Part shown: positions 5,778-21,354 of the stretch, in pieces
Layout of the letters: each line of letters begins with the position of its first letter
Position numbering within the stretch: the stretch's first letter is position 1
Made by a program: the position numbers and the translations under genes
Source: a virus
IMG/VR virus record: IMGVR_UViG_2617270923_000003
Location: 1-64,000 of that record
Length of the DNA: 64,000 nucleotides
Direction: 5' to 3' (one strand)
Notes under the pieces: generated by a model
Database searches by the model: none
What the model was told of the DNA's origin: nothing
What the model saw: only the letters and a program-made list of their open reading frames with translations

Positions 5778-5960
5778 GTATCTCAAAGGTGATACTCAAT
5801 GGCACAAGCCACATCATATCTCTCCTATCGTAGGCGAGGGCACTCGCTGGGTGCTGGTGCGGCCCATCCTCACCAGCGCGCGCCTGGACCTCGCGCACAC
5901 TGCTTTTCGCCTTCGATTCGATCACTTTAGCAGCATCTATAGCGGATGTCGGCAGGTTTA

Positions 5961-6150
5961 CTAGCGGGACCCGGCGCGGGGTGCGCATACGACCTTCGAA
6001 CCGGGCCTGAGCATATTCAACTCCTTTTTGACGACCGCGGCGACCAGCCGGCATTCGTCGCGGCTCGTAAACACAGCATTTGCGCGCTTGATATCGGGCT
6101 CTGGACCCGTGAAGTTGAAAATCAGCAGGATTGTGGTGATCTTGAGCATG
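5961..6150 (-). CDS. hypothetical small protein with hydrophobic N-terminus (62 aa)
   Basis: ATG at 6150 preceded by AAGGAGG RBS. Confidence 0.4.
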
Positions 6151-7120: not shown

Positions 7121-7243
7121 TTATTCCTTGTCTCCTTTAGACTTGTCGGAACGATTGGTGAGAAACAGACTCGTGCGGTAGACGCCAATGGCGAACACGA
7201 CGAGAAGGACGGCAAAGCCGAGGAACATCGCGAGCTTTCCCAT
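7121..7243 (-). CDS. micro-ORF, single-TM peptide (40 aa: MGKLAMFLGFAVLLVVFAIGVYRTSLFLTNRSDKSKGDKE)
   Basis: Absent from the ORF track (<60 aa). TGATG-coupled to the upstream micro-ORF. Its stop is followed by AAAGGAGACAAGGAATAAcc-ATG of the SPFH gene. Confidence 0.45.
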   Translation of the reverse strand: MGKLAMFLGFAVLLVVFAIGVYRTSLFLTNRSDKSKGDKE

Positions 7244-7383
7244 CACAGGAGAGCCTTGATGCCTTCGACCAGGCCGGCGAGGGCGAGAGCGCCCGTGAAG
7301 ACGATGGCGACGATGACAGCACCGCGGTTACCGTTGTATGCCTTGCCGTCGTGGTTGATGGTGTTCATGTCTTCAGGGCGCAT
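7243..7383 (-). CDS. micro-ORF, single-TM peptide (46 aa: MRPEDMNTINHDGKAYNGNRGAVIVAIVFTGALALAGLVEGIKALL)
   Basis: Lies directly downstream of the promoter cassette at 7406-7432 and is first in the operon with the SPFH gene. Confidence 0.45.
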   Translation of the reverse strand: MRPEDMNTINHDGKAYNGNRGAVIVAIVFTGALALAGLVEGIKALL

Positions 7384-7405
7384 GTCGTTCTCGCTTTCTG
7401 TGAAC

Positions 7406-7432
7406 TAAGTAACGACTTACTTATATCGCTAC
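7406..7432 (-). promoter_or_regulatory. promoter/operator cassette copy (TAAGTAAcgacTTACTTA..TATCGCT variant)
   Basis: Upstream of the micro-ORF/SPFH operon; followed by the CAGGTAGTGAGCGG upstream box. Confidence 0.45.
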
Positions 7433-7463
7433 ACAGTTTGGAGTGCTGCAGGTAGTGAGCGGC

Positions 7464-8909
7464 TTATGCAGCCGCCTGCACCTCGGCGTTGACGCGCTGC
7501 ATGGTCGAAGCGACAAAGCCAACGAGCGACTTGTGGGCGCGATCGGTAATCTGCTCCCAGGACTGGGTCGTGATGAAATCGCCGTTGCGGAAGACGACCT
7601 GGAGCTGGTTGTCGATGCCCTCGGGCAGCGCGTCCTCGCGGATGGTTTCGAATTCGCCGTCATTCATGACCACGGCGACACGACCAGCCTTGGAAGACTT
7701 CGAGGGATCCGTCGCGGGCTTCTTCTGCACGTCCTGCCAGCCATTTCCGAAGTCGATGGCATTAGCCTTCATGGCGAAGCGCTGATCGTCGCGCTTGTGG
7801 GACTGCAAGAGCCCACCACCCATGCCAAAGGCGATATTGTCGATGGAGAAGCCTTCCATCAGCATCCGGGCAACCAGGGCAGCAACAGACTGCGGCGTCA
7901 TGCCGTCGCCCTGGATGACGCGCACATGCTTGTCGAGAACCTTGAACCCCTTCGAGTTCGTGGTCCCGCCGAAGATATCCCAAAGCTTCTTGATGACCGC
8001 AACGGGCGTTTCGACCGGATCGCCGGAGTCAGGACGGATAACGAGCGTGCCGTCGATATTGAGGATCTTCTCCTTGAGCTCGTCGCCGAAGATGTTCTCG
8101 ACCGCGTTGAACAGGTCGTAACTGTCGGAGACGACCGAGAACAGACCGTGACCGAAGTTGTCGATCATATTGGAGTAGGCATCCGCTTCGCGGTCCTGAC
8201 CCCAGCTCGTCATGGTCGAATGCTCCGACGCCGGAATGGAGAAGCCGGGCATCTCCTGAGCATCGTAGTAGTGCATCGCGCCCTGAATGGCTTCGAGGGT
8301 GTCGGTGCCCTTGAAATTGACCAGGTGAGCCATACCGCCCAGCATCGCGGATTCGCCAGACGAGACTCCACGGGCGCCGAAGTCATGCAGCTTGAACGGG
8401 ATCTGACCATCCGGATCGTCGGATGAGCGCTTCAGGCCGTCATAGATGATCGCCTTGGTGATGAAGGAGATCGTCGCGACAGAGGTCGGATACCAGATGG
8501 CGCGCAACAGCGCGGTTTCGACGAAGCTCGTAAGCCACGGAACCTTCGGGTCGGTGTTCTTGACCTGGATCATCGGCGTGCCGCGCGGAACGAACGAACC
8601 TTCCGGCAGAGCCTGAATCTCAATCGGCAGGTAGCCGTCATGATGTTCAAGGATATAGCGCCAGCCTTCCTCGTTGAACGGCAGGCCGTGCTTAAGGCAA
8701 AGCTCCTTGGCTTCCACGATGTCCGCTGCCTGAATCGGCATCGTCAGGTATTCCGACAGAAACGCCTGCAAACCGAAGAAGACGGAGAACTGCGGGCGAT
8801 CCGACTGCTTGCGCGCCTCGATGTAGGAGGAGATGAACTGCGCGCCGGGCGGATACTGGTTGAAATGGGACTGCTTATAGCTGTCCGTGGACAGGATGAT
8901 GTTCCTCAC
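7464..8909 (-). CDS. nadV: nicotinamide phosphoribosyltransferase (NAMPT/NadV)
   Basis: 481 aa; matches NAMPT along its whole length (STDSYK...HDFGARG...GTDT...SIPA.EHST...IRPDSGDP...QGDG). Confidence 0.85.
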   Translation of the reverse strand: MRNIILSTDSYKQSHFNQYPPGAQFISSYIEARKQSDRPQFSVFFGLQAFLSEYLTMPIQAADIVEAKELCLKHGLPFNEEGWRYILEHHDGYLPIEIQALPEGSFVPRGTPMIQVKNTDPKVPWLTSFVETALLRAIWYPTSVATISFITKAIIYDGLKRSSDDPDGQIPFKLHDFGARGVSSGESAMLGGMAHLVNFKGTDTLEAIQGAMHYYDAQEMPGFSIPASEHSTMTSWGQDREADAYSNMIDNFGHGLFSVVSDSYDLFNAVENIFGDELKEKILNIDGTLVIRPDSGDPVETPVAVIKKLWDIFGGTTNSKGFKVLDKHVRVIQGDGMTPQSVAALVARMLMEGFSIDNIAFGMGGGLLQSHKRDDQRFAMKANAIDFGNGWQDVQKKPATDPSKSSKAGRVAVVMNDGEFETIREDALPEGIDNQLQVVFRNGDFITTQSWEQITDRAHKSLVGFVASTMQRVNAEVQAAA

Positions 8910-9949
8910 AGGTAGTCTCCCTTGAGCAAGTTGGTGATGATGGAATGATGGTCTTCGTAGAACTCAGCGGTCGTGAGCGACGCGAAGTCATACCAATCGG
9001 CATGAGCCGCATCGTCACCCGCCTTGACGGCCGGGAGTTCCACGTCGGCGGGAATGGCGAACACGAAGGCCATCGACACGATGCGACCGCGGAGAGAGCG
9101 GTTCGGGTTGTCACACAGCCACTCGCCGGCGCAGTGTTCCTCAAGTGTCTCGCGATCGAGCCCGGTCTCTTCCATCGCTTCGCGTAGCGCGGCATCGAAG
9201 AAGCGTTCGCCCTTCTCGACGAACCCGCCCGGCATAGCCTTCTGACCACGACCGGCAGCCTTGCCGCGCGTGACGAGAAGGATCTTGCCGCGATGAAAGA
9301 CGAGAGCATCGGCAGCCAGGAACGGACCGTCGCCGTAGGTCTCCTTGTCCTTGGCGAGACCGTCTTTCCAGGCGACCAGATCCTTGAAGCGCGGCGTAAG
9401 AGCAAACTCCTTGAGCCAGGTGACGACCTGCGGCGAGCAAGCGTCATGCGGCAGGCGCGGGAGCCGGCGAAGGTAATCGTCGCGGATATCGGACGCGTTG
9501 AGCGTGCCGTGCTGAATGTCGATCTGAATATTGTCCCACTGGGGAAACATATTCAGATAGTAAGACGAGGCATCCTTGCCGAAGCCGGCGAGCGCGACCT
9601 TGAAGTCGTTTAACCCATGCAGGCGAATGCCACCCTTGTTGGCGTGATTGAGGATCGCATTCTCGACGCCACGGCGCAGGTTCTTCTCCCAATCGTAGTC
9701 GTGCTCGTAATCGTAGAGCGGGACCAGGATCAGACGGCCGGTTTCCAGCTCGTGATGGAAAACCCGTGTAAACATCGCTTCGCGATCAGCGAAGGTGAAA
9801 GGGTTCTTGGGCGTGGGCGCCATGTGGCTCGAACCAACAACGACGATCAGGGTTTCAACACGCTCAAGCGCGCCGCGAATGACGGCCTCGTGGCCCAGAT
9901 GAAGAGGCTGGAAACGGCCGATGAAGACGCCGTAGTGAAAGTCGCGCAT
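8906..9949 (-). CDS. natV: bifunctional NMN adenylyltransferase / Nudix ADP-ribose pyrophosphatase (NatV-like)
   Basis: N-terminal nucleotidyltransferase motif (GRFQPLHLGH) and a C-terminal Nudix box (GG.VE.GE....A.REA.EETG). ATGA-coupled to nadV. Confidence 0.8.
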   Translation of the reverse strand: MRDFHYGVFIGRFQPLHLGHEAVIRGALERVETLIVVVGSSHMAPTPKNPFTFADREAMFTRVFHHELETGRLILVPLYDYEHDYDWEKNLRRGVENAILNHANKGGIRLHGLNDFKVALAGFGKDASSYYLNMFPQWDNIQIDIQHGTLNASDIRDDYLRRLPRLPHDACSPQVVTWLKEFALTPRFKDLVAWKDGLAKDKETYGDGPFLAADALVFHRGKILLVTRGKAAGRGQKAMPGGFVEKGERFFDAALREAMEETGLDRETLEEHCAGEWLCDNPNRSLRGRIVSMAFVFAIPADVELPAVKAGDDAAHADWYDFASLTTAEFYEDHHSIITNLLKGDYL

Positions 9950-10731: not shown

Positions 10732-12186
10732 TTACGCAGCCTCTGCGGGCTGCGTATCCTTCTTGGGCTTCTTGCCCTTGTGCCACTTCATTTCGCCGGC
10801 CATGATCGAGCCACGCGGAAGAATCCGGTCGGCAATCTTGGCGAGTTCGAACTTTTCAATCTGAGCTTGCACCTGGCTTGCGTTCTTGTAGGCGCTCGGC
10901 AGTTCGGATACGTCCGGATCACCGGTGTAGAAGCGGACATCAAGGCCGGCCGTTTCACGATCCATGATCGCCTTGATCGCATTCGGGCCCAGACCGCGCG
11001 TGTCGCCGAACTCTTCCATGAGGCGCTTGATATGCGCCGTGCGGGAGAGATTGCGCCCGGCACCATGCGGTGCGAACCCGAGAGCGTTCTCGTTGTTCTT
11101 GTGCTCGGCGATCAGGATGGGCTGTGCCATATTCATCGGGATCAGCGTCAGACCCTGGTCATCCTTTGAGAAGCCCTTGAAGGACGGCGTTGCGCCCTTG
11201 GCGTGGTAGAACAGCCCGTCGGAGCGCTGAAAGACAAAATTGTGCTCGTTCCAGAACTGCCCGATGATCTGATTACCGAGCCGCTTGGCGACCAGGTTGT
11301 GAATGGCGAAGTGGTTCATCTTCGTCCAAAGGCGCAGCGCCTGAAGAGCCTGCCAGTAATCCTGGCCCACCTGGCTATCCGCCTCGATCCAGGCATTGTG
11401 CAACGGGATCCTCGGGGCGACGATCCGCGTATGGCGCTCGGCTGCAGCCTTGCCCCGCTTGTAGAGCTGACCGCCCAGCCCACGAGAGCCATGATGAGTA
11501 ACGATCGCCATCTGACCGGTCGATTCCAGCTCGCCCACGTAGAAGAAGTGATTGCCGTCACCCTGGGTCATGAAGTGGTGGATGGCGTAATCCTCCAGCC
11601 CTTTCAAGAACGGGTTGGCTTCGAAACCGTTGACCAGGCTCACAAGATCCTTGTGCTGACGAACCTCAGACGCCGTGCGCTTGCCGACGCCGAAGTGGGT
11701 CGCCTTCATGGCGATATCAAGCACATAATCGACCGGCGTGTCGCGCTTGAAGACGGAGATCGCCATCGAGCAGCAGATGTCGGCCGAGTGGAAGCCCGGA
11801 TGGATCGCGTTCTTGGTCGCAACCACGCCACCAACAGGAATCGTGCCTATCGCAGAGCCTGACGGGCAAGCGTCAGGCATGACTGCGCCGCGCTCGATAG
11901 TCGGAACGCGCATTAGCGCATCCATGTGGGCGAGGACGCCGGCGACGTTCGCCTTCTCGTCGTCACCTTCCGGCTCGATGAACTGGCCGAACGGAATGTT
12001 GTTGGTTCGCAGCGGCACACCTTCCTCGACAGCCTTGGCTGCCTGGAGCGGAAACAGCGCCTGAATGATCTCCTTGTCGGTCTTGCCGTCCTCGCGGAGC
12101 TGGCGAGCCAACGGCAGCGCTTCCTTGAACCATGCGCCAGGCTGTAAGCCCCACGCGACGAGCGTCTTGCCCGAGATATTACTCAT
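10732..12186 (-). CDS. rtcB: RtcB-family RNA 3'-phosphate ligase
   Basis: 484 aa with the conserved RtcB motifs (QGDGNHF, THHGSRGLG, FAPHGAGR, His/Cys metal ligands). Confidence 0.85.
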   Translation of the reverse strand: MSNISGKTLVAWGLQPGAWFKEALPLARQLREDGKTDKEIIQALFPLQAAKAVEEGVPLRTNNIPFGQFIEPEGDDEKANVAGVLAHMDALMRVPTIERGAVMPDACPSGSAIGTIPVGGVVATKNAIHPGFHSADICCSMAISVFKRDTPVDYVLDIAMKATHFGVGKRTASEVRQHKDLVSLVNGFEANPFLKGLEDYAIHHFMTQGDGNHFFYVGELESTGQMAIVTHHGSRGLGGQLYKRGKAAAERHTRIVAPRIPLHNAWIEADSQVGQDYWQALQALRLWTKMNHFAIHNLVAKRLGNQIIGQFWNEHNFVFQRSDGLFYHAKGATPSFKGFSKDDQGLTLIPMNMAQPILIAEHKNNENALGFAPHGAGRNLSRTAHIKRLMEEFGDTRGLGPNAIKAIMDRETAGLDVRFYTGDPDVSELPSAYKNASQVQAQIEKFELAKIADRILPRGSIMAGEMKWHKGKKPKKDTQPAEAA

Positions 12187-12709: not shown

Positions 12710-12968
12710 CGACGTTCACGCCGTCGGGCGTGTGCCATCTGATCGGACCCGCTAGATTGCTTTCCGGGACCAGGAAGATTCTCGCGTCCTCGCAGGTCGC
12801 GTCTTCGGGCGGTTCAGACGAAAGAACACCTTCGAAGCAGCAAGCCCAGCCAGAGCAGAAGTCAGTGGCTTTCCAGGCTTCAAAGGCCTCTGCGGGTGTC
12901 TCGGCGCGCACAAACAAATTCAGGCTCTCGCCGTCATTGTCGTGGGCGCAGATGAAATAGAGGTTCAT
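12687..12968 (-). CDS. hypothetical protein (93 aa)
   Basis: ORF in a coupled array. Confidence 0.4.
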   Translation of the reverse strand: MNLYFICAHDNDGESLNLFVRAETPAEAFEAWKATDFCSGWACCFEGVLSSEPPEDATCEDARIFLVPESNLAGPIRWHTPDGVNVVAHVNPI

Positions 12969-13264
12969 CGATACCTCCTCATGTCGCCGAGGATCAGCAC
13001 CAGGCGCGGGTTCTCAGTGATCTGTGGCTCCGAATAGGCGCTGTAGAAGCACTCCACGGCCTCTTCCGGACTGTCGAAAATTTCATAGAACTCCTCGCGA
13101 GGATCTTCGGTCGTGCGGTCGATACCCTCGTAGCTGTCGTAAATGACTGCGTAGAAAGGCAGGCCTTCGTGTCCGTGCTGGAAGGCCGCGATCGCCAGGC
13201 GCAACCGTGCGAAGAAGCGGTAGAGCGCCTTAGACATTGATCTTCTCCTCGATGAGAATATCAA
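12965..13264 (-). CDS. hypothetical protein (99 aa)
   Basis: ORF with ATGA coupling. Confidence 0.4.
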   Translation of the reverse strand: MIFSSRRRSMSKALYRFFARLRLAIAAFQHGHEGLPFYAVIYDSYEGIDRTTEDPREEFYEIFDSPEEAVECFYSAYSEPQITENPRLVLILGDMRRYR

Positions 13265-13586
13265 TTTCGTCGTCTGTCAGACCCTGGACGCGCCCATTGC
13301 AGGCGATCTCCACGAGCGCGGGCGGAATCATGGAATTGTCCTGCCACAACCGAAGCGCAGCGATGACTGTGTCACGCTCGGGGCCGGTAAGGGCGATCGT
13401 GTCGGTGGGCGTGATGCTGCGAAGACGACCCCTCTCAGCGAACAGGCGCTCTTTCTCCGCGTCCAAGCGCTTGATCAGGTCTGCAACAGCGGGATCATTC
13501 TCCGGACCTTCCTTCGCTTGGCATAAGCGGCAGATGACGGCTGATATCACCAGGTCCAGTTGCTCTTCGGTAAACTCGATCTGCAT
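13230..13586 (-). CDS. hypothetical protein (118 aa)
   Basis: ORF downstream of the promoter cassette at 13603-13631. Confidence 0.45.
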   Translation of the reverse strand: MQIEFTEEQLDLVISAVICRLCQAKEGPENDPAVADLIKRLDAEKERLFAERGRLRSITPTDTIALTGPERDTVIAALRLWQDNSMIPPALVEIACNGRVQGLTDDEIDILIEEKINV

Positions 13587-13602
13587 AGAAATCTCCCTTC
13601 GC

Positions 13603-13631
13603 TAAGTAATTACTTACTTAGCTTTATAGCG
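13603..13631 (-). promoter_or_regulatory. promoter/operator cassette copy (TAAGTAAttacTTACTTA..TTTATAGCG)
   Basis: Upstream of the 13230..13586 gene. A 9-bp hairpin at 13660-13690 upstream of it may terminate the preceding operon. Confidence 0.5.
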
Positions 13632-13714
13632 GTGGCATCGACGGGGTGCATCAAGTCGTGAGCGGACGGCGATAACAGGAAACTCGCCGTCCGTTACCTA
13701 CGCAGTTAGTCGGG

Positions 13715-14506
13715 TTAGCTTGCGGCAGGTGCCGGCACCAGGCTGCGCAGACGCTCGGCAATCTTGCTGTCCGAGCGGAGCGTAAGCGTCTGCCCGGAGC
13801 GATCAGCGATCTTGACCGTAGCGAAGAGGTTCATGATCTGACCTGACTGCGAGCGCGCGGTGCCTTCGCCAAGGCCGGAAGCCTTGTAGGCGCCGACGAC
13901 ATCAGCCGAAGTCATCGAGCCCTTGCTGTCGAGCAGCTTGAATGCCACCATCACGTAGACGGACGGCTCCTTGCCGACGGACAAAGCGGTGAACAGGTTG
14001 TCGAACTTCTCGGCGACCTTTACCTGAGCCGGCAGGAGCTTCATGGTCGTCTCACGGGCGGTCTTGAGGTCTTCGTCCGACATCGTGGACGGGTCGCCCG
14101 AGAGCACGAAGAACTCGTCGGCCACCTTGGAGATATCGCGAGGCGTGCGCGTCACGCCACTGGATGCTGCCTTACGCTCGCCCTTGGCCTTCGGCCGGAC
14201 GGCTGCAGTCGGCGCCGGCAATTCGGTCGTGGTAACGGAAGATGACTTCTGCTCCTCATAGATTTCGTTCTTGGCGAGCGCCAGGTCGAGATCGGCGAGC
14301 TCCTCGCTTTCGAGGACGGTCGGCGCGACCGCGGCTTCTTCCGCTGCTTCGAGTTCGGCTTCGTCTTCCGGCGTTGTCTCGTAGATCACGCCTTCTTCCT
14401 CACCCTCGGACTGAATGTCGAGGTCTGCGAGAACGGCGTCGAGTGCGTCGAGGTCTGCGGTATTCGGCATGGCGTTTTGCTGGATCGTTGCGAGTGCGGT
14501 GCTCAT
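13715..14506 (-). CDS. hypothetical protein with a strongly acidic N-terminal half (263 aa)
   Basis: Long ORF. The Asp/Glu-rich N-terminal segment could be a DNA mimic or scaffold; no family was recognised. Confidence 0.5.
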   Translation of the reverse strand: MSTALATIQQNAMPNTADLDALDAVLADLDIQSEGEEEGVIYETTPEDEAELEAAEEAAVAPTVLESEELADLDLALAKNEIYEEQKSSSVTTTELPAPTAAVRPKAKGERKAASSGVTRTPRDISKVADEFFVLSGDPSTMSDEDLKTARETTMKLLPAQVKVAEKFDNLFTALSVGKEPSVYVMVAFKLLDSKGSMTSADVVGAYKASGLGEGTARSQSGQIMNLFATVKIADRSGQTLTLRSDSKIAERLRSLVPAPAAS

Positions 14507-14585: not shown

Positions 14586-15152
14586 TTACGCAGCGAGTGC
14601 GATCCCTTCCATCTGAGGCAGGGCGAAGAAGCCCCAATCGAGACCGCGGTAGAAGCAGTCCATCATGATATCCACGTCATAGGCCGCGGCATGTGCCCTG
14701 GTCGGGTCGTAGTCGACGCCGCAGGCAAAGGCGAGTTCGCCAAGGCGGGGCTTCTTGCCGTCGCTGCAAGCCCAGACGCCATCGACCATCGTGTCGATCC
14801 AGGGCTTCTCGGTCATGGTGAGACCGATGCGCTGCATTTCGCGTTCACCGAACGGCTTGTCGAAGTCATTGCCGTTGTGGGCGACGATGAAGTCGGCGCG
14901 CTGCAGGATCGCATTGATCGTGGGAGCCACCGCGTCCCAGGTGGGCTGTCCGATCAAGTCGGTCGCCGAGATCCCGTGAACGCGCTGGGCGTCGGCTGCA
15001 ATTGAGCGCTGCGGGTCAATGCGCTGCTCGAAGCTCCAAATCTTCTGTCCACCGCGATAGAGCCCAATGTAGGCTTCGATGATGCGGTGATCGGGCTCGT
15101 TCTTGCCCGTCGTCTCCCAATCGAGACCGGCGATAATTGGAACATAGGTCAT
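14586..15152 (-). CDS. DnaQ-like 3'-5' exonuclease (DEDDh family)
   Basis: Exo motifs I-III are present (LDWETTG; HNGNDFD; HAAAYDVD). Confidence 0.75.
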   Translation of the reverse strand: MTYVPIIAGLDWETTGKNEPDHRIIEAYIGLYRGGQKIWSFEQRIDPQRSIAADAQRVHGISATDLIGQPTWDAVAPTINAILQRADFIVAHNGNDFDKPFGEREMQRIGLTMTEKPWIDTMVDGVWACSDGKKPRLGELAFACGVDYDPTRAHAAAYDVDIMMDCFYRGLDWGFFALPQMEGIALAA

Positions 15153-15376
15153 GGTCGATGCCTCGGATTAGTCAGCGCCGCCTCAAGCATTTCGAGGGCG
15201 ATGGCGCGATTGATGTGTTGGCCGCGACCGTGGTGGTAACGTGCAACCGTGCCGGTCGGCAGATGCGTCACCTGGACGCCGGTGAGAGTGCGGGCAACAC
15301 GCATACCCTTGCTCGGATAGGCGTCGTAAACCTCGATCTTCAACTCGTCGTAGGGAATGATGGTCGCGTGGGTCAT
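15149..15376 (-). CDS. peptide chain release factor GGQ-domain homolog that lacks the GGQ motif (75 aa)
   Basis: [54 protein letters not shown] aligns with RF1 [54 protein letters not shown]. The GGQ position reads SKG here. ATG has a GGAAG RBS; ATGA-coupled to the HNH gene upstream and the DnaQ gene downstream. Confidence 0.6.
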   Translation of the reverse strand: [75 protein letters not shown]

Positions 15377-15916
15377 ACGTGCTTCCAGGTCTTGCCGTTG
15401 ATGATGTTGATGACCGTCGAGCGCGAGACGCCATAGGTCTTCGCCAGCTCTTCCGGAGTGTTATCGTTTGCGGCCGCGCGGATCTTCATCACCTGGTCAG
15501 CGGTGAGCTTGGCGTTCGAGTTCGCGGAGCCGCGTCCGGTCTTCAATCCCGTGCGATGGGCGTGTTTCTCGTTGTCCGAGCCCGTCGACCATTCGAGGTT
15601 CGAAGCCGCGTTATTCTCCTTGTTGCCGTCAATGTGATTGACCTGCGGCAAGTTGAGCGGGTTCGGATGGAAGCGCAGCGCGACCACCCGGTTGACCAGG
15701 ACCGACTTGGTGTAGCCGACATAGGTCATGTTGAAGTAAACCCGGCCGGACTTCTTGTGGACCTGCTGCGTGACGACAGAGTAGCCCTTCGACCGGTCGA
15801 CGACGCCCTTGTCGTCGGCCTTGTTGGCGCGACGAATGGTGCCGTCTTCCGAGACGATCAGATAGCCGCTCCGGATCGCGATCAGGATCCAGGTGTCCTT
15901 GGGGAACTTCTTGCTC
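15373..15916 (-). CDS. HNH homing-endonuclease-like protein (NUMOD-type N-terminus; probable TTG start)
   Basis: HNH motif NHIDGNKENNAASNLEW and a C-terminal DNA-binding tail. An N-terminal W..I.GY.VS.DG.I segment is also present. There is no ATG; a TTG overlaps the upstream stop. Confidence 0.65.
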
Positions 15917-16229
15917 AAAGATGCTGGTCCTTGTGAAGGCTGGAGAACAATTCGCCGTCCTTCGTCTGGACGGTCATGACGCCAAGACCGGCAGCCGGAT
16001 ACATCTTGGCGATCATGCGGGAGAGCCAGGACAGGATCGAGAGCTTCCACATCTGGCGTTTGGCGATACGGTAGTCCTCGGCCGTCAGCATATTGGACTG
16101 GCAGTCCGGGCATTCCTTACCGATCAGACCCTTGTGCAGGCGGTCCACATCTTCCATGTAGTGACAGGCGTCACACACCAGCCTTTGCAGCTTTTCGACG
16201 GGCCGCTTCATCACGTATTTCCTTTTCAA
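15915..16229 (-). CDS. hypothetical Zn-ribbon protein (CxxC...CxxC)
   Basis: 104 aa with two Cys pairs (CDACHY...CPDCQ). Confidence 0.45.
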   Translation of the reverse strand: MKRKYVMKRPVEKLQRLVCDACHYMEDVDRLHKGLIGKECPDCQSNMLTAEDYRIAKRQMWKLSILSWLSRMIAKMYPAAGLGVMTVQTKDGELFSSLHKDQHL

Positions 16230-21277: not shown

Positions 21278-21354
21278 TGGTTGGGGATTAGAGGAGTCGA
21301 ACCTCAACCTTGTCTGACTCGTCAGCCAGTTGCTCTGCCCTGAGCTAATCCCCA
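21278..21354 (-). tRNA. tRNA-like gene with a normal acceptor stem, D-arm and T-arm (GGTTCGACTCC) and encoded CCA, but an aberrant anticodon arm
   Basis: rc sequence TGGGGAT-TA-GCTC-AGGGCA-GAGC-A-ACTGGCTGACGAGTCAGAC-AAGG-TGAGG-TTCGACT-CCTCT-ATCCCCA-A-CCA. The anticodon region is the palindrome CTGAC-GA-GTCAG, so a 5-bp stem with a 7-nt loop cannot form. Confidence 0.4.

Follow-up and report, generated by a model that had tools for sequence, protein, structure and literature searches.

A stand-alone release-factor catalytic domain without GGQ in a rhizobial phage as a putative non-hydrolytic occupant of the peptidyl-transferase cleft

Closest described systems and identity of the mini-RF

The sole known substrate of the GGQ motif of release factors (RFs) is the ester bond of ribosome-bound peptidyl-tRNA, and RF catalytic domains are thought to need an anchor in the decoding center or the mRNA channel in order to function. 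Here, we analyzed a 64,000-nt stretch of viral DNA (the window; positions 1 to 64,000 of IMG/VR virus record IMGVR_UViG_2617270923_000003) in which a gene on the minus strand (15149..15376, ATG start, stop codon included) encodes a 75-aa protein, hereafter the mini-RF. The gene appears in the open reading frame (ORF) list, and the Pfam RF-1 profile, a phmmer search of the PDB, and structure prediction with AlphaFold 2 (AF2) followed by Foldseek all relate its product to the catalytic domain 3 of class I RFs, with Lys-Gly-Met at the position of GGQ.

The backbones of the two GGQ glycines take conformations that are barred to other residues (PMC5799190; PMC4691834), and passages of the same two papers state that mutation of either glycine abolishes release. 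The part of PMC4691834 that deals with the glutamine assigns its catalytic role to the main-chain amide, with the side chain mainly packing the pocket, and describes a Q-to-E mutant that retains reasonable activity. In RF1 and RF2 (∼360 aa), domain 3 is accompanied by domains 1 and 2/4; a profile comparison found none of domains 1, 2, and 4 in the 75 residues of the mini-RF, which is therefore unable to read stop codons. Fold and register of domain 3 are the same in both, gapless over 58 residues, with the THxPTG and R(S)QHxN(K/R) motifs in common and 31 to 40% identity over the Foldseek-aligned region among significant hits (E ≤ 1e-3), whereas the long helix of the mini-RF is cut after ∼17 residues and capped by LTNPRHRP, and KGM stands in place of GGQ. 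ArfB (YaeJ), ICT1, and mtRF-R, which are codon-independent rescue factors, resemble the mini-RF in that they have a GGQ-type domain without codon-recognition domains. However, ArfB has GGQ itself, and its strands 2 and 3 are separated by an inserted helix; it further has a linker and a basic C-terminal tail. Alignment of the mini-RF with Escherichia coli ArfB revealed the insertion, the linker, and the tail to be absent. The N-terminal domain of ArfB binds the 50S A site, and first docking through it has been proposed (PMC7427801); sections of PMC3950681 and PMC7427801 describe the tail as essential for binding and activity and report that single tail mutations lower ribosome binding. PrfH (RF-H), the partner of RtcB2 in ribosome repair, is likewise an RF homolog tied to RNA repair, and the window has an RtcB gene 3 kb away from the mini-RF gene; nonetheless, GGQ and a domain 2/4-like module are both retained in PrfH and both lacking in the mini-RF. 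Membership in an ArfB-like or a PrfH-like class was ruled out by the absence of these defining parts.

Loss of the catalytic glutamine from a retained RF catalytic domain is seen in MRPS35 (bRF-PH) and, in proteins of the aeRF1 fold, in Dom34/Pelota, most baeRF-1 families, and Balon. Balon reportedly occupies the A site without hydrolysis. The fold of Dom34 and Balon is unrelated to that of the mini-RF, and these inactive relatives either form part of the ribosome or have extra domains that bind RNA or interact with GTPases, whereas the mini-RF is a bare 75-aa viral domain. These relatives have been proposed or shown to be A-site occupants that do not hydrolyze (PMC6514570). Small phage proteins that, like the mini-RF, consist of domain 3 only are already known by annotation, as the NCBI label "peptide chain release factor-like protein" and the entries of PHROG 20323 (Lazarusvirus) and PHROG 35727 (Otagovirus) attest; these annotated proteins, among them gp244 of Agrobacterium phage OLIVR5, are only 33 to 46% identical to the window protein. 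RF-1-domain genes have also been noted in mycobacterial tRNA arrays beside HNH genes (PMC5966550). Searches of the literature returned annotations only and no functional study of a phage mini-RF or of a GGQ-less bacterial-type RF domain; nor did they return a prior description of the LTHPxFR family, the GGQ-less lineages, or the x-G-M motif described below, and Burroughs and Aravind 2019 leave phage versions unmentioned.

The mini-RF matched the Pfam RF-1 profile (PF00472) with 43 bits (E = 5.2e-11; profile positions 7 to 71 of 116), above the gathering cut-off of 35 bits. The NCBIfam models for prfA and prfB (TIGR00019 and TIGR00020) gave local matches of 43 to 44 bits against cut-offs of 370 to 423, and the model for PrfH (TIGR03072) gave 26.2 bits against a cut-off of 166.65. 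In the PDB, phmmer aligned residues 11 to 68 without gaps to residues 238 to 295 of E. coli RF2 (E = 8e-8). An AF2 model computed from the three closest sequences alone was unusable (predicted local distance difference test score [pLDDT] of 44) and was replaced by one based on a 39-sequence family alignment, which reached a pLDDT of 91.6 and a predicted template-modeling score (pTM) of 0.77. This model consists of a strand (residues 12 to 17), a loop (18 to 32), two further strands (33 to 38 and 43 to 47), and a helix (53 to 69), with the C terminus only 6 residues past the helix. In a Foldseek comparison, it superposed on domain 3 of mitochondrial RFs as well as of RF1 and RF2; the top-ranked hits had query template-modeling scores (TM-scores) of 0.65 to 0.75, and E values for RF1/RF2 chains went down to 1.7e-5. 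By profile and superposition, the mini-RF is thus within the RF-1 fold but without the catalytic Gly-Gly-Gln, and we regard it as all but certain, in identity as well as in anatomy, that it is a bare class I RF catalytic domain. These results bear out the original prediction, which had read the 75-aa product as a stand-alone RF domain 3, devoid of codon-recognition domains and of an ArfB-type tail, and had proposed superposing an AlphaFold model on that domain.

The same prediction had GGQ replaced by SKG. The loss is confirmed, but the motif was placed one residue out of register and reads KGM: the gapless RF2 alignment sets K23-G24-M25 (AAG GGT ATG; 15302..15310, minus strand, as are all coordinates of the gene) opposite G250-G251-Q252 of the E. 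coli protein, and alignment to the family profile gives the same register. The window loop reads PSKGMRVA against PxGGQHVG in the family, the His following the Gln position being lost as well. This former catalytic loop (residues 18 to 32; 15281..15325) lies between strands 1 and 2 of the AF2 model and is hypervariable among orthologs. The body motifs GVxVTHxPTG and RSQHxNRxIA, by contrast with the motif of the loop, are present with one Ser-to-Gly change. They include T37-H38-L39-P40-T41-G42 at the turn between strands 2 and 3 (15251..15268), common to RF1, RF2, and ArfB, and R51-G52-Q53-H54-I55-N56-R57 at the start of the long helix (15206..15226), which aligns with RSQHKNK of RF1/RF2. Pro40, Gly42, Gln53, and Asn56 are invariant in the alignment with RF1 and ArfB. 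The C-terminal cap, L68-T-N-P-R-H-R-P75 (15152..15175), corresponds in the family alignments to an "LTHPxFR" ending that is not present in canonical RFs.

Selection on the gene and the phage family to which it belongs

Orthologs of the mini-RF of 70 and 75 aa, with 70 to 71% identity, were found in two metagenomic phage contigs of ∼120 kb that are syntenic with the window (L006, 118.7 kb, and L033), both of which have the same order of HNH, mini-RF, and exonuclease genes. Around the GGQ position, these sequences diverge: KGM in the window is QGM in a 97%-identical variant, RGM in L033, and PGGF in L006, so that residue 23 is K, Q, or R among near-identical variants. Pairwise Nei-Gojobori estimates for the window and the two orthologs yielded a ratio of nonsynonymous to synonymous divergence (ω) of 0.19 to 0.34 for the whole gene and of 0.09 to 0.18 for residues 33 to 75, at a synonymous divergence (dS) of 0.65 to 1.0. 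For the loop (residues 18 to 32), ω was 1.1 to 1.6 in two pairs, with few sites and dS near saturation, and the third pair was saturated. Judged by these ratios, the sheet-helix body is strongly constrained and the former catalytic loop nearly free except for Gly-Met, and the mini-RF is a real gene under purifying selection, not a decayed fragment. Descent by decay from a full-length GGQ-containing RF, an origin that the original prediction had named as the competing one, was ruled out by relatives of the same size (∼70 aa) and by an ω of ∼0.1 over the body.

An exhaustive hidden Markov model search of 1.84 billion representative sequences returned 2495 hits, the best of which are ∼70-aa proteins and not release factors, and a profile of 39 such mini-proteins matched 4584 clusters. 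The following description of the family rests on the best 120 of these 4584 clusters. Almost all of them are 67 to 78 aa long and nearly all have PxGGQHVG, within the consensus ...PPRxxGGQHVGxxxxGVKVTHLPTGxxA....RSQHxNRxIAxxMIEAALTHPxFR; canonical RFs have GGQHVN in place of GGQHVG. Family members were recognized by a length of 65 to 80 aa and an ending of the form (A/G)(A/G)(L/I)T(H/D/S)PxF/H-R, both of which the window protein has, and P0001, which is 99% identical to it, scored 112 bits against the family profile. By these sequence features, the window protein belongs to a phage-borne family of ∼70-aa LTHPxFR proteins. All genomic contexts of the family that were examined look phage-like (IMG/VR contigs, a contig that encodes rIIB and a family-A DNA polymerase, and the 148-kb contig described below), and phage proteins of the mini-RF fold are numerous in BFVD. 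The LTHPxFR subfamily is metagenome-rich and has no PHROG of its own, the window protein scoring 36 bits against PHROG 20323. A scan of genome contigs with the single protein gave only two distant hits.

GGQ is present in 148 and absent from 36 sequences of a non-random sample of 184 family members. On this sampling, the window gene is one lineage of a large mini-protein family, most of whose inspected members are GGQ positive. Conservation of the body motifs in the 36 GGQ-less sequences (His36, 100%; Pro38, 94%; Gly40, 97%; Gln51, 97%; Asn54, 92%) is as high as in those with GGQ. The motif x-G-M occurs in 20 of the 36 GGQ-less sequences and in ∼14 lineages at ≤70% identity; Gly is invariant in this motif, and its first position is G, K, R, Q, P, T, V, S, or L. 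For most x-G-M lineages, the nearest neighbor outside the lineage is a GGQ protein, and neighbor-joining with parsimony over 56 columns counted 24 state changes, which is suggestive of repeated Q-to-M replacement. Because the change from Gln to Met takes at least two nucleotide substitutions, Met appears to be selected. G-M-x-V-G in place of G-Q-H-V-G was observed in P0009, P0012, P0016, P0024, P0029, P0043, and P0051, with further examples in P0090, P0125, P0127, P0150, L010, and L030. Phages carry many bare ∼70-aa RF catalytic domains, then, and several lineages have swapped GGQ, often for x-G-M.

GGQ is absent in all four cultured-phage lineages examined, in which the loop reads KGM (the window lineage, B1VFA-like), RPSG-L (Agrobacterium Heverleevirus), SGARRW (Acinetobacter Lazarusvirus), and GGM (Pseudomonas Otagovirus). 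The Otagovirus GGM proteins, namely, gp006 of Pseudomonas phage phiPsa374 (L037:2489-2881) and VCM_00181 (L038:2501-2980), differ from the window protein by fusion to an extra segment like the C-terminal domain of ribosomal protein L7/L12 (PF00542, cut-off of 25.9 bits; the VCM protein scored 29.5 bits and that of phiPsa374 25.6 bits). This L7/L12-like fusion links x-G-M variants to the translation apparatus. Records of these Otagovirus proteins are labeled "hypothetical" or "peptide chain release factor 1." In Acinetobacter phage Stupor, the GGQ-less Lazarusvirus mini-RF (SGARRWVN) is located inside a phage tRNA array (L003:2190-3213), ∼700 bp downstream of a tRNA with a CUA anticodon, of the amber-suppressor type, that is annotated as tRNA-Pyl. 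A general linkage to tRNA genes was not seen: tRNAs adjoin the gene only in the Acinetobacter phages, lie a few kilobases off in the window lineage, and were absent from the fetched flanks of the other loci (∼2.5 to 8 kb on each side). Neither was a conserved partner gene found, the small ORFs that flank the mini-RF gene in L006, L033, L034, and L036 being unrelated.

Other RF-like genes were encountered in these contigs. A phage-like JGI contig of 148 kb (Ga0207747_1000037; L034) has a GGQ-positive mini-RF together with RMF-like (a weak hit), YqeY-like, Tpt1-like (PTS_2-RNA), and Thg1-like genes, i.e., a translation and RNA-repair gene cluster with features at 5890-6102, 7213-7650, and 12779-14397 of that contig. 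PrfH-like ORFs of ∼185 codons (start codons approximate), with GGQ and a domain 2-like N terminus, occur in the IMG/VR viral contigs L014-L015, L017-L027, and L029, and RF-like domains without GGQ lie within larger proteins in L016 (145 aa) and L028 (741 aa).

Proposed action of the mini-RF and its alternatives

Most inspected family members keep GGQ, from which we infer that the target of the family is the A-site side of the peptidyl-transferase center; the GGQ-less members, which keep the same body motifs, most likely act at the same site. We propose the mini-RF as a putative non-hydrolytic occupant of the A-site/peptidyl-transferase cleft of the 50S subunit and assign this reading a probability of roughly 0.45. 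Docking at the peptidyl-transferase center without hydrolysis, as first predicted, is plausible. The protein is most likely not a hydrolase, because the first glycine is lost (Lys, Gln, or Arg) and the loop evolves at an about neutral rate. It would sit at the peptidyl-transferase center and leave the ester bond of peptidyl-tRNA uncut. Binding is expected to be weak because there is no anchor in the decoding center or the mRNA channel, and the main targets of the mini-RF would be ribosomes or 50S subunits with a persistently empty A site, where it might exclude RF1/RF2, ArfB, or transfer-messenger RNA (tmRNA) or shield the nascent chain. Its role would be that of a viral modulator of termination or rescue and not that of a release factor. 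The functions put forward in the original prediction (termination or rescue inhibitor, hibernation factor, and anti-defense factor) are candidate roles, and the analysis found neither a conserved partner gene nor a link to defense systems. If they bind ribosomes, such proteins would be the smallest molecules in nature that probe or inhibit the peptidyl-transferase center from its A-site side, and viruses would have in them a new route for tuning termination or rescue; without such binding, an RF domain would have been recruited to a new partner. Natural pairs of GGQ-positive and x-G-M proteins provide built-in controls in either case.

Several points weigh against this proposal. Parts of PMC3950681 and PMC7427801 report that the isolated N-terminal GGQ domain of ArfB cannot hydrolyze peptidyl-tRNA, and since that domain is inactive on its own and ArfB binding is tail dependent, it does not follow that a bare domain 3 would dock. 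The mini-RF may need a partner, and none was found beside the family genes. A general A-site blocker would also harm the translation of the phage itself. The gene is missing from the related phages B1VFA and RHph_X66 and is thus accessory and dispensable; at the corresponding spot, a 39-aa membrane peptide is encoded in B1VFA, and in RHph_X66 the HNH and exonuclease genes are joined directly. Finally, Gly24-Met25 is retained in three of the four variants of the window clade, and x-G-M recurs family-wide, which hints at a specific chemical role of the loop and not at mere steric filling.

This recurrence bears on two further explanations, both of which we consider unlikely. One is that the x-G-M mini-RFs, the window protein among them, constitute a viral class of their own that binds the peptidyl-transferase center without hydrolysis, has repeatedly been derived from GGQ mini-RFs, and has an anti-rescue or anti-termination function. 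They might hold peptidyl-tRNA on ribosomes with an empty A site, for example, after host defense nucleases have depleted tRNAs, and bar release and rescue factors of the host until decoding is restored by phage tRNAs and RtcB; another possibility is a selective silencing of host ribosome rescue. The other is that the mini-RF is still a peptidyl-tRNA hydrolase, in which G-M-x-V would work as G-Q-H-V does, with Met packing like (methyl-)Gln and independently of the host methyltransferase PrmC, and which would rescue stalled ribosomes, e.g., after host tRNA cleavage during infection. The frequency of x-G-M across GGQ-less lineages, its invariant Gly, the at least two nucleotide changes behind each Q-to-M replacement, and the retention of both glycines as GGM in several members all fit such an activity, as do the RtcB and tRNA genes of the phage and the passages of PMC4691834 in which the main-chain amide is catalytic, the side chain packs, and Q-to-E is reasonably active. 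However, the first glycine is Lys here and Gln or Arg in close variants, and glycine mutation abolishes release; moreover, the His after Gln is gone, ω of the loop is ∼1, the ortholog P0002 has no Met at this position, and the GGQ domain of ArfB shows no activity in isolation (PMC7427801).

A constrained body beside a free loop is also what a mimic or an adaptor for a non-ribosomal partner would display, whether it engages the GGQ methyltransferase PrmC as a decoy or dead-end ligand or binds some other protein or RNA, of the host or of the phage. A precedent is PrfB3, a chloroplast GGQ-less RF homolog that was recruited to RNA binding. Inactive bRF-PH domains with other roles are likewise documented, e.g., MRPS35 (PMC6514570), and a bare GGQ domain is expected, from the passages on ArfB cited above, to bind ribosomes poorly. 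Against this stand the GGQ of most inspected members, an indication that the family originally targeted the ribosome, and the lack of a conserved neighbor gene at the family loci; a PrmC ligand, in particular, would need a constrained loop, whereas that of the mini-RF evolves at about the neutral rate. We judge a non-ribosomal partner improbable, in much the same degree as residual hydrolysis. Far less probable still is that the gene is functionless, a decaying hitchhiker of the adjacent HNH homing endonuclease after loss of GGQ. Its absence from the close relatives B1VFA and RHph_X66, its position in a variable spot beside one or two HNH genes, and the lost catalytic motif could all be so explained, but the ω of 0.09 to 0.18 over residues 33 to 75 (dS, 0.65 to 1.0), the intact frame, the overlap at the exonuclease junction kept in three diverged phages, and the confidently predicted AF2 fold speak for a maintained protein.

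Gene junctions, neighbors, and phage setting

The mini-RF product is identical to WP_097169844.1, a "peptide chain release factor-like protein" of Rhizobium sp. AN5 (120.5-kb contig). Its gene is joined to both neighbors by 4-nt ATGA overlaps, one between the HNH stop and the mini-RF start (15373..15376, minus strand), with a Shine-Dalgarno-like GGAAG 5 nt upstream, and the other between the mini-RF stop and the exonuclease start (15149..15152, minus strand); by gene coordinates, the latter is kept in both orthologous loci, L006 and L033. The upstream neighbor is an HNH homing-type endonuclease with a C-terminal helix-turn-helix (maximal ORF, 15373..16113, minus strand; Pfam HNH_3, PHROG 59). 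Its 246-codon ORF is probably over-extended at the 5′ end, with the true start near 15918, because relatives are 176 to 193 aa long. Downstream lies a DnaQ/RNase_T-type 3′-5′ exonuclease gene (14586..15152, minus strand; Pfam PF00929, PHROG 192). Both overlaps and both neighbor assignments agree with the originally predicted ATGA coupling to HNH upstream and a DnaQ-like exonuclease downstream. No promoter-like sites were found in the scanned region around the mini-RF gene, and terminator-like sites showed no excess over the shuffled expectation; with neither signal separating it from its neighbors, the mini-RF gene is placed inside a polycistronic block.

The spot between the HD-phosphohydrolase and exonuclease genes is variable and populated by HNH genes, of which L033 has two (L033:6759-7863) and the window, B1VFA, RHph_X66, and L006 have one each. 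Also present at this spot are a gene for a small membrane peptide (B1VFA and L033) and an ORF of 90 aa (L006).

That the gene is phage encoded, as had been predicted, is supported by its surroundings. The window contains genes for rIIA, rIIB, a DNA polymerase, ribonucleotide reductase, an SbcC-like protein, DNA ligase, and a tail fibre, along with an NAD-salvage pair, RtcB, and four tRNA-like genes, with nearly all genes on one strand, and it shares synteny with two Rhizobium phages of ∼120 kb, B1VFA and RHph_X66. The window comes from a large phage of the virulent type. PADLOC defense models gave no match. The NAD+ salvage pair (7464..9949, minus strand) comprises a nicotinamide phosphoribosyltransferase and an NMNAT-NUDIX fusion and is likewise found in L006 and L033, the syntenic contigs that carry a mini-RF. 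The RtcB RNA ligase region (10732..12186, minus strand) lies ∼3 kb from the mini-RF gene, and RtcB occurs also in relatives without a mini-RF. Among the tRNA-like genes, the one at 21282..21353 (minus strand) is clustered with tRNA-Pro(UGG), tRNA-Cys(GCA), and tRNA-Ser(UGA). It has an 8-nt anticodon loop (CUGACGAG), is reported by ARAGORN as "tRNA-???," and scores 33.2 bits against the Rfam tRNA model (gathering score, 29); it may represent either a degenerate copy or a tRNA of the quadruplet-reading or frameshift-suppressor-like kind.

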